From Candidatus Peregrinibacteria bacterium RIFOXYA2_FULL_41_18 (GTDB lineage: Bacteria; Patescibacteriota; Gracilibacteria; UBA1369; UBA12470), in the NCBI GenBank assembly GCA_001788795.1, contig MFXH01000004.1, forward strand, positions 6,831-70,830: a stretch of DNA of 64,000 nucleotides, written 5' to 3'. Under the pieces are notes generated by a model. That model was not told the origin of the DNA and did no database searches. It saw only the letters and a program-made list of their open reading frames with translations. The position numbers and the translations under genes were made by a program. How positions within the stretch are numbered: the first letter of the stretch is position 1; every line of letters begins with the position of its first letter. Positions 9,652 to 60,106 of the stretch are shown one piece after another.

Positions 9652-10377
9652 TCAGGTCAATTTAAACCGTGTCGGACCTGAACCTGAGAGAGTAGATGGC
9701 AGGTTGCAGGTGGCAGATGGCAGAAGATCGAAGTCGTTATGGAGATTTTCTATAACGCCCTGGAGGTTGTTTTCTTGCAAGGCGCGGATAAGATTTTCCG
9801 TTTTTTTGCGGTTTTGGCCGGCTGGCATTGTGTCGATTTTTTTATACATGTCGGCTGTCGATTTTTTCTCCCCGGGGAGAAAAATCAATTTCGGCTTTAG
9901 AACAAGGTCGGTTTTTATCGGCTCGATTATTTCGCCATAGTGCGTTGCGCGTGCGATACCGCCCGTAATGAAAAATGGCGCATCCATTGAAATTTTTGCG
10001 GCGAGAATGCGGAGCGCATGAACATCCAAGCCGAGAGCGAGTTGGTGATTCAGCTCTTTTAAAACTGCTGCTGCGTTGCTCGATCCACCGCCGAGACCGG
10101 AGCGGAGTGGGATGTTTTTTTTGATCGTTATTTTTACAGACGAATCGCCGGCAAGAAGTTTTGCGGCTTTGTAAGCTGTGTTTTTTTTGGGCGTTTCGTT
10201 TAGTTCTTTATTGTCCGTCGAGATTTCTATTCGAGACTTCCCGTCGCGAATAACCGCAACCTCAATTTCATCAAATAAATCCGCAACTTCGCACATCACC
10301 GTATCGATCAAATGATATCCGTTTTCACGACCCATTATGTCGATTGTGAGATTTATTTTTGCGTAGGACTTGAGCAT
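9652..10377 (-). CDS. ispE: 4-diphosphocytidyl-2-C-methyl-D-erythritol kinase (short form)
   Basis: YAKINL N-terminus and GHMP motif PLRSGLGGGSSNAAAV are present. The C-terminal SGSGPT motif is preceded by repeat-encoded LLPSATCNLPST. The start was set at ATG 10377. Confidence 0.85.
   Translation of the reverse strand: MLKSYAKINLTIDIMGRENGYHLIDTVMCEVADLFDEIEVAVIRDGKSRIEISTDNKELNETPKKNTAYKAAKLLAGDSSVKITIKKNIPLRSGLGGGSSNAAAVLKELNHQLALGLDVHALRILAAKISMDAPFFITGGIARATHYGEIIEPIKTDLVLKPKLIFLPGEKKSTADMYKKIDTMPAGQNRKKTENLIRALQENNLQGVIENLHNDFDLLPSATCNLPSTLSGSGPTRFKLT
9689..9723 (+). repeat. tandem heptamer repeat (agagtag atggcag gttgcag gtggcag atggcag), family B
   Basis: Five 7-nt units in plus orientation lie inside the 3' part of minus-strand ispE and are translated in-frame on the opposite strand. 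Confidence 0.8.
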
Positions 10378-16157: not shown

Positions 16158-16335
16158 AATGACTGGTGAAGAGTGTGAATAAAGTATGCGAACGGCTTAT
16201 ACAAGGCGTCGCTTAAGCTTCGCAAATATACCCTTTTATAAGGAGATTGCATACGCAATCATACTTGATAATATTGCGCTCGTGAAGGCTTCGCCTCCCG
16301 AGCGCCTCTTGACTAAAGTAAACAATTCCCATAAG

Positions 16336-16884
16336 ATGGCGTGGCTTTTTGTTAAATCCATAATTTTTATTGCCATCGTCAAACATTTACGAGTCAATCG
16401 TCAGATTAATTCTCCAACAGTTCGACTTATTTCGGACGACCAAGAACAGGTTGGAATAATGGGTCTGGACAAGGCTCTAGCGCTGGCTCACGAAAAAAAT
16501 CTTGATCTTATCGAAGTTTCCCCAAAAGCCAATCCTCCGGTATGCAAGATCATGGATTACGGAAAGTATTTATATCAATTGAAGAAAGCCGAACAGAAGC
16601 AGAAGAAAGGCATGAAAAAAACTGAGATCAAGGGAATAAGGCTCTCTCTAAGGACGGATGTCGGAGATCTCAATATCAAGATCAATAAGGCGAAACAATT
16701 TCTTGCAGACGGGAATATCGTAAAGGTCCAATTGATGTTCAAGGGAAGGGAAATCATACATAGCGAATTGGGATTGGCAAAAATTATTACATTCAGGGAT
16801 GCCCTTAAGGAAGTTGCCAAAATCGATTTGGAACCGAAAATGCAGGGACACATGATGAATATGATGCTAAGCCCTCTCAAATAA
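16336..16884 (+). CDS. infC: translation initiation factor IF-3 (start codon uncertain)
   Basis: RVNRQINSPTVRLISDDQEQVGIM..., NPPVCKIMDYGKY, and C-terminal domain IKGIRLSLRTDVGDL. Either ATG 16336 or an in-frame ATT/ATA near 16363-16371 could be the real start. Confidence 0.88.
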   Translation: MAWLFVKSIIFIAIVKHLRVNRQINSPTVRLISDDQEQVGIMGLDKALALAHEKNLDLIEVSPKANPPVCKIMDYGKYLYQLKKAEQKQKKGMKKTEIKGIRLSLRTDVGDLNIKINKAKQFLADGNIVKVQLMFKGREIIHSELGLAKIITFRDALKEVAKIDLEPKMQGHMMNMMLSPLK

Positions 16885-57100: not shown

Positions 57101-57505
57101 GGGGATGTACAGGTTTTGACAGAGGATTTCTTCGGTCAGATATCTTAAGCTCGGCGGTTGCACCGTCCCGTCGTTATAAGAGTTCGGTGCAAAACCAAAT
57201 GCAAGCGAAAATCTTGCCGCAACGCTTTACAGAGCTTTTGCTCCTGTCAGAGTAGCTGCGTAGATGTTTCGGCCATCGTGCCGGAACCCGTTCTTTGGCC
57301 CGATGTCTCATGAGGTCAAAAGAATGTCATTTATGGGGCACGGCGTGTAAATTTGGAGTTTTATTTACTCGCTTAAAATTTAAAACCAACCTTTTGCGGT
57401 TTTTGGCCGGTTCTTTATCGCAAATCGTTAAACAGAGCCGGTTATGGCTTTAAACGGTATTTGCCGGACCTTTGGACGCGGGTTCGATTCCCGCCATCTC
57501 CACCA
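57101..57505 (+). ncRNA. ssrA: tmRNA (ssrA)
   Basis: The 5' end is GGGGATGTACAGGTTTTGAC and the 3' end is GGACGCGGGTTCGATTCCCGCCATCTCCACCA (T-arm, acceptor, CCA). An internal tag ORF starts at GCA 57201 and encodes ASENLAATLYRAFAPVRVAA, with stop TAG at 57261-57263. Confidence 0.93.
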
Positions 57506-57560
57506 GAGTAGATTGCAGTTGGCAGATTGCAGATAGTAGGTTGCAGGTTGCAGGTTGCAG
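57506..57560 (+). repeat. tandem heptamer repeat, 8 units, family B, abutting the tmRNA 3' end
   Basis: (a)gagtag attgcag ttggcag attgcag atagtag gttgcag gttgcag gttgcag. Confidence 0.9.
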
Positions 57561-57650
57561 AAAGGAGGAATGCGTTTTTGAGTAGCCAGAAGCGCGGTTT
57601 TGATGTATAAGCTTGGGGCTTGCCATTAACTCGCTGATGTTAAATCCCTT

Positions 57651-59129
57651 ATGTCATTCAGTGAAACATTAATTAGTTTTGATTCTGTCTCGTTCGAATT
57701 CGAGCACAAAAAACCGATACTGGATGCGGTGAGTTTCTCGGTGCGAAGAGATACAAAAATTACGATAATGGGGCAAAACGGTGCCGGTAAAAGTACGATT
57801 CTTAAACTGATTACAGGTGTGATTAAGCCGATAGAGGGATCTGTTAACAAACTGCCAAAGCTTACAGTTGCAACCGCCCATCAGGTAATTCGCATGGAAG
57901 ATCGCGATCTTACCGTGCGAGCTTTTTTCGAGAAGAATTTTAAAGAAAAAATGTACGATATAGACAGAAGAATCGATGAGGTCTTGGAGGTTGTCAATCT
58001 ACATGCGCCTCACGACAGGCTTATTAAAAGTTTTTCCGGAGGGCAACAGGCAAGGCTACTTCTCGCTTCGGCGCTAATTCAAGATGCGGATTTGTTACTT
58101 CTAGATGAGCCGACGAACAATCTCGACAAGGCAGGGATTGAGCATCTTACGATGTTTCTTATAATGTATCCGAAAACGTGTATTGTTATTTCACACGATG
58201 CGGACTTTTTGAATTCGTTTACGGACGGAGTTTTGTATTTGGATTCGCATACTCATAAGGTTGAGCAGTATGCCGGAAACTATTTCGATGTGGTTGAGCA
58301 GATCGCGAAGAGAATTGAAAAAGAAAATATGCAAAATGCACAGGCCGAAAAAATAATTCTTAAGAATAAAGAACAGTCGAATGTCTTCGCACATAAAGGA
58401 GGAAAACTCCGTGATGTTGCGCGAAAAATGAGAGAAAAAGCCGAGGAGATGGAGGAGGCGAAAGTTGAAGTTAGGCGTGAGGATAAGACGATTCGTCCTT
58501 TTGAAATTCCGATTCAAGAAGATATAGGTGGTGTCATACTCAGAATTACAGAGGCTTCCGTTATTCGCAATCATCATGCGTCGATGAAGAAAGTCGATAT
58601 TTCTCTCCAGAAAGATCAGCATCTTCTTCTTACGGGACCAAATGGAATCGGTAAAAGTACGCTTCTTGAGGTTTTGGCCTCCGGCAAATCCAAACACGCG
58701 GTTGTAAAAGAAGGTATTCGAATCGGATATTATCGTCAGGATTTTTCTACTCTTAATTTCGACCATACTGTTCGTGAATCCTTGATGGAGGCGCTTGAAT
58801 CCGCCGGTGGGGAAAACATGGAGGATAAAGTTCCGGAGGAGGAAATGCGCAAGGTCGCGGCCGGTTTTTTAATCACAAAAGAACTTATTAATTCCAAGAT
58901 CGGGTATTTGTCTGAAGGGCAGAAAGGGCTTGTGTCTTTTGCGCGGCTTGTTTTGCAAAGGCCCGGCCTTCTCATTCTTGATGAGCCTACAAATCATATT
59001 AATTTCCGACATCTCCCCGTGATTGCGGAGGCGCTGGATTCTTATGCGGGTGCGATGGTTTTGGTTTCGCACGTTCCGGAATTTGTTGATAAAATTCGTA
59101 TAGACCAGACATTGGATTTGGATAAGTAG
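57651..59129 (+). CDS. ABC-F family ATPase (two ABC domains, no TM; translation-factor type)
   Basis: Two Walker A motifs (GQNGAGKST, GPNGIGKST), two signature motifs (FSGGQQARL, LSEGQKGLV) and a charged linker. Confidence 0.88.
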   Translation: MSFSETLISFDSVSFEFEHKKPILDAVSFSVRRDTKITIMGQNGAGKSTILKLITGVIKPIEGSVNKLPKLTVATAHQVIRMEDRDLTVRAFFEKNFKEKMYDIDRRIDEVLEVVNLHAPHDRLIKSFSGGQQARLLLASALIQDADLLLLDEPTNNLDKAGIEHLTMFLIMYPKTCIVISHDADFLNSFTDGVLYLDSHTHKVEQYAGNYFDVVEQIAKRIEKENMQNAQAEKIILKNKEQSNVFAHKGGKLRDVARKMREKAEEMEEAKVEVRREDKTIRPFEIPIQEDIGGVILRITEASVIRNHHASMKKVDISLQKDQHLLLTGPNGIGKSTLLEVLASGKSKHAVVKEGIRIGYYRQDFSTLNFDHTVRESLMEALESAGGENMEDKVPEEEMRKVAAGFLITKELINSKIGYLSEGQKGLVSFARLVLQRPGLLILDEPTNHINFRHLPVIAEALDSYAGAMVLVSHVPEFVDKIRIDQTLDLDK

Positions 59130-59130
59130 A

Positions 59131-59192
59131 GTTTTGCATTCGCAAAACGACTTGATAATATATGGTGCAAGGAATGCTTTGCGTCCTTGCAC
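59131..59192 (+). repeat. two-hairpin module, copy 1 (intergenic)
   Basis: GTTTTGC-attc-GCAAAAC (59131-59148) and GTGCAAGGA-atgctttgcg-TCCTTGCAC (59165-59192). Confidence 0.85.
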
Positions 59193-59209
59193 TGTTGGAT
59201 AAATAAGAT

Positions 59210-60106
59210 ATGGGTTTTGATAAAGTTAAAATTGCGTGGTTCGGTAAACATTTCGGCGAAGAGCCGCCTTTTTGCGGAGGAGTTGATCAGGGTGCGGGTG
59301 GAATATTTTTTAGCGGGTGTAATTTAAGGTGTGTTTTTTGCCAGAATTATCAGATTTCGCAGGGCGGAGTTTCGCATCCGCGAAACGGCTTAGGTTATGG
59401 CGCAAGGAATGCTTCGCGTCCTAGCGCTGAGGGTGGTATAGGTCGCGAATATAGAGTGGAAGAGCTTGCCGAGATCATGCTTAAACTGCAAAAAGATGGC
59501 GCTGTTAACATCGATCTTGTGACGCCGACAATTTGGTTTAGGCAAATAAAAGACGCAATAAAAATTGCACGAGTGGGCGGATTGAAAATCCCGATTTTGT
59601 GGAATTCCAATGCGTATGAAAAAGTTGAAATGTTGCGAGAAATGGAAGGGCTTGTTGATATTTATTTGCCGGATTTTAAATACGGGATTGACGAGGTCGG
59701 ATTCAGATATTCCGGTGTCGCGAATTATTCTCTTGTTGCGATTCCGGCTATTAAAGAGATGCTTAGACAGGTTGGAAATTTGGTTGTGGCCGGCGATGGA
59801 ATTGCGAGGCAGGGTGTTTCTGTCAGGCACTTAGTCTTGCCCGGTAATTTGGAAAACAGTTTTCAGGCTATCAACAAGCTCGCAGAGATTGATACGGAGA
59901 TGTTTGTAGGGCTGATGAATCAGTATTCACCTATGCATAAGGCTGAAAAATTCCACGAGATAAATCGCATGCTTACAGGCGAGGAGTTTGACAGTGTTTT
60001 TAAATTTTTACTAAAAAAAGGATTTCAAAACGGATGGGTGCAAGATGGTGAAAGCAGGTGCGTAATGATACCGGACTTTACAAAACCGGATCCGTTTAAT
60101 GTATAA
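59210..60106 (+). CDS. radical SAM enzyme (PflX/PFL-activase-like) carrying a ~25-aa repeat-derived insertion
   Basis: CNLRCVFCQNYQIS is a CxxxCxxC motif, followed by NIDLVTPT. The segment GVSHPRNGLGYGARNASRPSAEGGI coincides with module copy 2. Confidence 0.8.
   Translation: MGFDKVKIAWFGKHFGEEPPFCGGVDQGAGGIFFSGCNLRCVFCQNYQISQGGVSHPRNGLGYGARNASRPSAEGGIGREYRVEELAEIMLKLQKDGAVNIDLVTPTIWFRQIKDAIKIARVGGLKIPILWNSNAYEKVEMLREMEGLVDIYLPDFKYGIDEVGFRYSGVANYSLVAIPAIKEMLRQVGNLVVAGDGIARQGVSVRHLVLPGNLENSFQAINKLAEIDTEMFVGLMNQYSPMHKAEKFHEINRMLTGEEFDSVFKFLLKKGFQNGWVQDGESRCVMIPDFTKPDPFNV
59369..59427 (+). repeat. two-hairpin module, copy 2 (inside the radical-SAM CDS)
   Basis: GTTTCGC-atcc-GCGAAAC (59369-59386) and GCGCAAGGA-atgcttcgcg-TCCTAGCGC (59400-59427). 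Base changes relative to copy 1 are compensatory in both stems. Confidence 0.85.

Follow-up and report, generated by a model that had tools for sequence, protein, structure and literature searches.

Why should a module of two hairpins occur twice in quick succession in a bacterial genome, once between two genes and once inside a conserved coding sequence? The question is raised by a 64,000-nucleotide stretch of contig MFXH01000004.1 from Candidatus Peregrinibacteria bacterium RIFOXYA2_FULL_41_18 (this whole stretch is called the window below), in which one copy lies just ahead of a radical-SAM gene and the other within it. We consider it quite likely that both modules belong to a selfish, non-autonomous family of palindromic repeats, which behaves like the Rickettsia palindromic elements (RPEs) and resides in a groundwater Peregrinibacteria-like lineage of the candidate phyla radiation (CPR). 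The family exists in many copies, and its insertions are independent and located in unrelated genes. The original prediction, made from the letters of the window, had already likened the pair to RPEs: the likeness holds for behaviour, and the element is an analogue of the RPEs, not one of their members. The features at the locus are the following.

57651-59129, + strand: gene of an ABC-F type ATPase, upstream of copy 1 (two Pfam ABC_tran matches)
59128-59198, + strand: copy 1, intergenic two-hairpin element (covariance-model score 84 bits, E = 2e-18)
59131-59148, + strand: hairpin 1 of copy 1, GTTTTGC-ATTC-GCAAAAC
59165-59192, + strand: hairpin 2 of copy 1, GTGCAAGGA-ATGCTTTGCG-TCCTTGCAC
59210-60106, + strand: radical-SAM protein gene, 298 aa, host of copy 2 (Pfam PF04055, homologues, alignment and AlphaFold2 model)
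59366-59433, + strand: copy 2, two-hairpin element inside the radical-SAM gene (covariance-model score 92 bits)
59369-59386, + strand: hairpin 1 of copy 2, GTTTCGC-ATCC-GCGAAAC
59400-59427, + strand: hairpin 2 of copy 2, GCGCAAGGA-ATGCTTCGCG-TCCTAGCGC
59366-59434, + strand: in-frame insertion corresponding to copy 2, 69 nt or 23 aa (GVSHPRNGLGYGARNASRPSAEG, register ambiguous by 2 nt)

Copy 1 adjoins the stop codon of the ABC-F gene (TAG, 59127-59129), the last codons of which (TTGGATAAG TAG) recur imperfectly 3′ of the copy, and 11 nt separate its end from the ATG of the radical-SAM gene (59210). The hairpin sequences and positions first proposed were borne out when the sequence was read again; as for the extent of the module, the two hairpins stand, but the conserved unit is slightly longer, running from GGAG through hairpin 1, a spacer and hairpin 2 to CTG, i.e. 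~64-67 nt. In a pairwise alignment the two copies share 83% of the columns and differ by a single 3-nt indel, which falls in the spacer. A 21-nt core, GCAAGGAATGCTTYGCGTCCT, occurs exactly twice in the window, compared to an expectation of zero from 100 shuffles. Both copies are predicted to fold into two hairpins, copy 1 at -26.4 kcal/mol (z = -5.0) and copy 2 at -26.5 kcal/mol (z = -2.4), and in the predicted folds pairing always remains within each hairpin and never joins the termini of the element. Going from copy 1 to copy 2, a T-A pair is replaced by C-G in hairpin 1 and another T-A by C-G in hairpin 2. These paired differences, to which the original prediction had drawn attention, are both real, but copy 2 also carries an unpaired change in hairpin 2 (TCCTTGC to TCCTAGC), which creates an A.A mismatch.

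Exact-core scans of species-representative genomes and JGI metagenomes retrieved five copies on different contigs of one related metagenome-assembled genome (MAG), JBAYGX01, and four further distinct contexts in other groundwater assemblies; matches in a gammaproteobacterium and in a Rothia genome were set aside as obvious chance matches. The covariance-model search that had been proposed as a check was carried out with a model (R1) built from 11 distinct copies. It found copies in the window (three), just beyond it (one) and in relatives (nine more divergent ones). In all there are ~21 distinct copies, ~17 of which are in related groundwater genomes. Besides copies 1 and 2, two others of the same genome lie in the window and just past its end.

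16242-16311, + strand: copy 3, of a divergent subfamily, in the divergent intergenic region between ispG (- strand) and infC (+ strand), in the same orientation as infC (37 bits, E = 5e-7, filters off)
L025:17004-17074: copy 4, ~2 kb past the window end (model R1)

Metagenomic contigs add to this picture of a dispersed repeat. In four of eight groundwater or soil runs, contigs are 5- to 13-fold deeper over hairpin 2 than over the flanks; one more run, X8, gives a rise of ~10-fold, and X13, X17 and X19 show no clear rise. Dozens of different flanks start at 59366 and end at 59429-59432, where assemblies break, and these boundaries agree with those of the conserved GGAG...CTG block. At the gathering threshold, Rfam left the element unmatched, its only match in the window being tmRNA, and a permissive Rfam scan of 59100-59460 returned just two snoRNA matches of chance level (E about 6). 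A literature search found no published CPR or Peregrinibacteria repeat of this kind.

Some of these copies interfere with gene calls. A Ham1/methyltransferase gene called at L025:17002-18225, ~2 kb beyond the window end, begins at an ATG that belongs to the repeat (ATGGAGTTTTGC...), and judging from the sequence its first ~24 codons are probably element and not protein; in the relative L001 the corresponding call begins just past the element. At L001:18774-18850, a short divergent copy is followed in tandem by a partial second one (GGAG and hairpin 1), and together they replace 12 nt of the orthologous sequence, so that the Ham1/methyltransferase C-terminus is altered and its last residues are replaced. 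The infC open reading frame (ORF), listed at 16186-16884 from an upstream ATG, takes in copy 3; conserved sequence of the product, IF3, starts near 16370, where translation probably begins at a non-ATG codon, as is usual for infC.

Is the structure itself maintained? Among 11 close copies, three pairs have changed on both sides, and at position 5 of hairpin 1, for instance, six copies have C-G and four U-A, the remaining one being mismatched. When divergent copies are included (20 in total), 12 of the 16 pairs show double changes and 95% of the cells are paired; with the partners slid by 1-3 columns only 36-54% of the cells pair, and none of 500 shuffles reaches the observed scores. Since the 20-copy alignment was fitted to the model, these covariation figures lean towards structure. 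The nine divergent copies were also folded singly: the same two hairpins appear in all nine, with z ≤ -3.2 in seven, and their hairpin-2 stems are unrelated in sequence. Copy 3, with GATTGC/GCAATC in hairpin 1 and GCGCTCG.../...CGAGCGC in hairpin 2, gives the two hairpins when folded independently (z = -4.2). L025:17004 and L001:17540, an orthologous pair of copies between genes, have 20 differences in 71 positions, nearly all within hairpin 2, yet both fold. The layout common to the family consists of GGAG, hairpin 1 (7 bp with a 4-nt loop), an A/T-rich spacer, hairpin 2 (9 bp plus a small apical stem) and CTG. Its constant single-stranded features are the spacer (CAGCTTATATTATG; CTTATAWTAT) and the GGAG at the 5′ foot of hairpin 1; the GAG directly 5′ of hairpin 1 is invariant and the full GGAG is present in 13 of the 20 aligned copies. 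The two-hairpin architecture is kept through compensatory change. The claim of selection on structure was right, and with the further copies and the covariation it is seen far better in the divergent subfamilies than in the window pair alone.

The host of copy 2 is a protein of the PflX or 'putative pyruvate formate-lyase activating enzyme' type, according to the labels of its homologues. An insertion of ~25 aa had been proposed here, in frame and between the CxxxCxxC cluster loop and the EELAEIM helix; frame and position are correct, and the length is 23 aa (69 nt). Aligned with orthologues, as the original prediction had suggested, the 23-residue segment (VSHPRNGLGYGARNASRPSAEGG or an equivalent register) is found in two of 20 proteins: that of the window and P0002, a sister-lineage orthologue, 81% identical to it, from a 'Candidatus Gracilibacteria' MAG. 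The other 18 lack it, namely P0003, the next relative (74% identity), and 17 further orthologues, in which ISQG is directly joined to GIG; no orthologue from an unrelated genome among those aligned carries the segment. In DNA terms, the P0003 contig has CAAGGTGGA|ATTGGC at its empty site, and a metagenome contig from run X17 holds an empty allele in which 59365 is joined to 59435, skipping exactly 69 nt. An AlphaFold2 model of the protein has a mean predicted local distance difference test (pLDDT) score of 85.6, with most blocks above 90, and renders insert residues 54-72 as coil, with no secondary structure and pLDDT below 50. The orthologue alignment, the empty allele and the low pLDDT thus lead us to regard the insert as a lineage-specific, in-frame and probably disordered loop; the surface loop first imagined is supported by the model as regards disorder.

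Two other observations concern this neighbourhood. Relatives, unlike the window genome, have an extra gene of 201-217 aa, with no Pfam match, between the ABC-F and radical-SAM genes (59130-59209 compared with L001:9240-10000 and L004:1-700). Contigs in X7, X8, X13, X17 and X19 join ~59268-59362 to ~59639-59753 (region 59351-59753), and thereby skip 280-401 nt; their short sides measure 22-53 nt. The skipped lengths do not correspond to multiples of the insert, and the joins may be artefacts of the assembly graph, produced where other organisms contribute conserved radical-SAM motifs.

The radical-SAM gene is not a special case. Translation of the long ORFs around the copies, with hosts assigned by Pfam and by PDB comparison, places the element inside at least eight unrelated conserved genes. 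The other seven are:

Prepilin-type protein: in-frame copy in the leader, just ahead of the G/STLIE motif
CarB: in-frame copy in the interdomain linker between the oligomerisation domain and the second pre-ATP-grasp domain, where the alignment to human CPS1 is gapped
ComF-like phosphoribosyltransferase: in-frame internal copy
FemAB/GNAT-DUF218 protein: in-frame copy; the alignment to the window paralogue ends exactly at the insertion point
AMMECR1: in-frame copy; 26 query residues stand opposite 8 in PH0010
PabA/TrpG glutamine amidotransferase: C-terminal copy of the divergent subfamily, in another open sense frame
DprA: copy in the N-terminal region, in antisense orientation

For AMMECR1 and CarB, the gap in the alignment to PDB homologues coincides exactly with the element. 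Six of the eight host genes read the copy in a common frame, GVSHSRNSLYYGARNASRPSAxG, which is near-universal among the sense copies of the main subfamily; its invariant residues are G1, V2, N7, A13, R14, N15, A16, R18, P19 and A21. This bias can be read from the sequence of the alternatives, i.e. from their stop codons and hydrophobicity: one of the other sense frames is hydrophobic (EFRIRETAYIMAQGMLCVLAL), another is interrupted by TAG in the TCCTAGC variant, which is the common one; of the antisense frames, two have TAA and the other has TAG, except in the TCCTTGC variant, which is the one found in dprA. A reading of the hydrophobic frame (AQGMLCVLAL, frame 1) as the N-terminal membrane anchor of small proteins was dropped, because the long host ORFs display the common hydrophilic frame.

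Both window copies have presence/absence alleles, and the direct repeats around them are these:

59118-59125, + strand: 8-nt direct repeat TTGGATAA, left of copy 1
59195-59202, + strand: 8-nt direct repeat TTGGATAA, right of copy 1
59361-59367, + strand: imperfect direct repeat AGGGYGG, left of copy 2 (AGGGCGG)
59430-59436, + strand: imperfect direct repeat AGGGYGG, right of copy 2 (AGGGTGG)

In two independent runs (X7 and X8), an allele without copy 1 joins 59117 to 59195, skipping 77 nt with an overlap of 8 nt (TTGGATAA). It keeps a single TTGGATAA, leaves 3 nt between the ABC-F stop and the radical-SAM ATG, has a depth similar to that of the filled allele, and shows 3 differences in 84 nt of flank (~96% identity). 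Empty sites of copy 2 likewise hold one motif, AAGGTGG in the relative L004 and, as deduced from the junction coordinates, AGGGCGG in the X17 allele. The prepilin copy is flanked by AAAGGA. A target-site duplication at every copy is rejected in view of the permutation result given below (p = 0.67), the recurring GGA...GG being part of the element consensus.

Could the two modules owe their likeness to chance, or to a purely local duplication between 59131 and 59427? They are the only strong copies in the window and lie 238 nt apart, which might suggest so. But no core match is expected by chance, and additional copies turn up not only in the window and its genome but also in at least five other assemblies. 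Moreover, copy 2 shares 90-94% identity with copies from other genes and genomes, against 77% with copy 1, the most divergent member of the main subfamily. Being nearer to copies elsewhere, it is not half of a local pair; this rules out copy 1 as its local duplicate, and we give the whole idea next to no credence. Hardly more can be said for two other explanations. In one, the 23-aa peptide (GVSH..GARNASRPSA.G) would be a selected signal, modification site or interaction loop of several proteins, as its single frame in six of eight hosts and its ten invariant residues might indicate. However, the same DNA lies between genes, is read in another frame in PabA/TrpG, runs antisense in DprA and truncates a C-terminus, so the likeness is not one of protein-level homology, and what is inherited as a unit is a stretch of DNA, not a peptide. 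What is conserved is the nucleotide sequence, synonymous sites included, the segment is disordered in the model, and the prepilin copy sits in a leader peptide, which is cleaved off during processing. The peptide is also rare: only 46 proteins in 5.8 billion clusters share even one 5-residue word with it (none of these candidates from a doubled-profile search with the 23-aa insert obtained a score, which makes the number a sign of rarity, not a census). A protein-level module is accordingly very improbable. In the other, copy 2 would be an intervening sequence removed after transcription or translation, leaving a mature radical-SAM protein without the 23 aa. Its boundaries are sharp, its ends conserved (GGAG...CTG) and its structure stable, and CPR bacteria are known for insertions in their rRNA genes. 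Yet introns of group I or II and inteins are all far longer than 69 nt, frame maintenance and stop avoidance would be needless if the sequence were removed, and we know of no bacterial mechanism that splices mRNA at paired hairpins; we find this explanation scarcely credible.

More serious is what weighs against a mobile, selfish repeat as such. The radical-SAM insertion is older than the split between the window lineage and JBAYGX01. Nucleotide divergence of this orthologue pair is 22% gene-wide and 41% at third positions, and the 64-nt element differs at 5 of 64 positions (P = 0.003 against the gene mean and 4e-9 against third positions); no identical stretch shared by the orthologues is longer than that of hairpin 2, at 36 nt (p about 0.04). 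An element that evolves more slowly than its host gene points either to direct sequence-specific constraint, as on a binding site or on a structure (RNA or DNA) whose loop is specific, or to copies homogenising one another by gene conversion, and pure junk would not be expected to behave in this way. The signs of transposition are also few. Flanking repeats at the resolved sites differ in length (5-10 nt) and register, and the words shared by a copy's own flanks are no better than those of permuted flanks (21 copies, p = 0.67). Comparison of the 5′ end with the reverse-complemented 3′ end gives at most 7 matches out of 16 at any offset, i.e. no terminal inverted repeats. No transposase Pfam family is found among the genes called in ~60 kb of window and flanks, and no copy in phage records or viral contig collections. 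Runs that hold the window sequence are DNA metagenomes only, with no RNA runs among them, and it is conceivable in principle that the empty alleles arose by precise deletion between the flanking direct repeats and are not ancestral. One explanation for part of this would be a functional cis-acting module (a protein-binding site, a hairpin pair that stabilises or processes mRNA, or a promoter-proximal element) kept by selection, the intergenic copies being the working ones and those within genes by-products or also active in the mRNA. A cellular function of the hairpins would account for the slow evolution of the nucleotide sequence, hairpin-2 loop included, and perhaps for paralogous copies within a genome being up to 95-97% identical when orthologous genes are ~78% identical. 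Orientation, with 15 copies sense and 3 antisense to the host or nearest gene (p = 0.008), the position of four of the seven intergenic copies 0-15 nt ahead of a start codon, and a spacer that resembles a -10 box go in the same direction. On the other hand, a consensus scan of 58900-59500 found no promoter or terminator within the element, which leaves the -10 box idea unsupported, and there is no matching Rfam family. At least eight unrelated genes have a copy in their coding region, copies stand at variable distances from starts, at 3′ ends and in antisense, the sense bias within genes is expected anyway from the antisense stops (TAA in two frames and mostly TAG in the third), and copy 1 is dispensable in co-occurring strains. 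We therefore look on a cis-acting module as an unlikely explanation, one that does not fully exclude a mobile origin, since a mobile element can be exapted.

If the family is indeed selfish and mobile, its history was probably as follows. Copies would arise at new sites, between and within genes. Those within genes would survive only where the frame is kept, no stop is introduced and the site is tolerant, such as a loop, a linker, a cleaved leader peptide or a protein terminus. In the main subfamily, this filter would pick one sense frame, which writes a hydrophilic loop of 22-23 aa, rich in Gly, Ser, Arg, Asn and Pro and bracketed by glycines. The hairpins, the GGAG and the conserved hairpin-2 loop could be the determinants by which a copying enzyme acting in trans recognises the element. 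For the mode of movement we favour, with low confidence, recognition of the hairpins and GGAG by a single-strand-specific enzyme. That this enzyme binds hairpins and acts on single-strand DNA as one of the HUH/Y1 type, like those used by REP and IS200/IS605 ends, is possible and on the whole doubtful. There is a bolder version, in which a currently active double-hairpin element dispenses with a classical transposase, is copied by way of an intermediate (single-stranded DNA or RNA) that is recognised by its two hairpins and GGAG foot, and prefers targets containing GGA (Gly codons, ATGGA start regions). It would thereby write Gly-bracketed disordered loops into CPR proteins, and would owe its uniformity to gene conversion or to a second, cellular function of the hairpins. 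To this version we attach little probability.

How does the element compare with those already known? RPEs are ~100-150 nt long (Ogata et al. 2000, as summarised in PMC10969869). Like them, the present element is a short dispersed palindromic repeat found between genes and in frame in many unrelated housekeeping genes, with a conserved peptide for each copy, fold-compatible insertions, no obvious transposase and a small, reduced host genome. It forms stem-loops, is inserted in eight genes with a conserved peptide, and occupies loops, alignment gaps and a leader. In contrast, its host is a Peregrinibacteria-like CPR bacterium and not an alphaproteobacterium, and at 64-67 nt it is about half the size, two points that, going by published descriptions, set it apart from RPEs. 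It is also built differently, from two local hairpins with a single-stranded GGAG and an A/T-rich spacer in place of one long palindrome, and its peptide of 22-23 aa is hydrophilic and modelled as disordered. Repetitive extragenic palindromic (REP) sequences, with the BIME and REPIN composites mobilised by RAYT enzymes of the Y1/HUH type, and IS200/IS605-derived palindromes offer another parallel: short, G+C-rich imperfect palindromes with an orientation bias. They also resemble it in having no terminal inverted repeats and no regular target duplication, and in forming composites of two different palindromes. REP sequences, imperfect palindromes of about 20-40 nt, have a conserved tetranucleotide, GTAG, at the 5′ foot of the hairpin; the GGAG here has a like position and a different sequence. 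But REP sequences are extragenic by definition, whereas at least eight copies here are inside coding sequences, and the two palindromes of a REP doublet are inverted, when here two unlike hairpins are in direct arrangement. In those systems the genome also has a RAYT gene, usually with the repeats on either side of it; no RAYT or Y1 transposase gene is present among the genes called in the window and flanks.

Bacterial MITEs (transposable elements of the miniature inverted-repeat kind) such as ERIC, BOX, Correia, Nezha and QMITE1 are occasionally fused in frame with host genes (PMC10969869, PMC3184786). They too are small, non-coding, structured, present in multiple copies and polymorphic between strains, but classical MITEs have terminal inverted repeats and fixed-length target-site duplications inherited from a parent IS, compared to no inverted repeats and irregular flanks here. 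Finally, the mitochondrial hairpin elements, which include yeast GC clusters and the double-hairpin elements of Allomyces (PMC2800124, PMC4478555), are also tens of nucleotides long, with one or two local hairpins, and lie between genes and sometimes in rRNA or protein genes; the lack of flanking duplications around the Allomyces elements led to proposals of RNA-mediated or unconventional mobility (PMC2800124). They belong, however, to eukaryotic organelle genomes and have no sequence relationship to the present family, whose genome is bacterial and for which in-frame coding insertion is the rule. The element is therefore neither a classical MITE (it has no terminal inverted repeats), nor a REP (it is not extragenic), nor an RPE (by its host and size).

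The window holds other repeats. One, unrelated to the two-hairpin family, is built from runs of GGGGAAGTA/GAGAAGT units, after which come GAAGTGACRTAGT and sometimes further GACATAGT units, with 10 motif matches against 0.13 expected; it stands in short gaps just upstream of + strand genes and could be a motif of a promoter or leader, or else one more small repeat. Heptamer arrays (GCAGATT / GCAGGTT / GCAGATG) are located at 2221-2263, 9685-9727 and 57507-57564, the last directly 3′ of the tmRNA gene, which is the only match of Rfam and ARAGORN in the window, no tRNA gene being found there.

5696, 17514, 31016, 33501, 33996, 43834, 61053 and 63334, all + strand: the eight loci of the second repeat family
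57101-57505: tmRNA gene, 405 nt, tag peptide ASENLAATLYRAFAPVRVAA (Rfam / ARAGORN, 110 bits)

The two-hairpin repeat is an element of a known behavioural type, new to a lineage where none had been described. Until now, palindromic repeats that colonise housekeeping genes in frame have passed for a speciality of Rickettsia. That a smaller and differently built element does likewise in a CPR lineage, unrelated and with a reduced genome, suggests that small genomes short of intergenic space arrive at this outcome repeatedly. For CPR genomics the consequences are practical: the element breaks assemblies, adds lineage-specific insertions of 22-23 aa to conserved enzymes and misleads gene callers, one gene call starting inside a copy. 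Its presence/absence alleles in time-series groundwater metagenomes offer a natural system in which to study how such elements move, a question shared with RPEs and with the hairpin elements of mitochondria.

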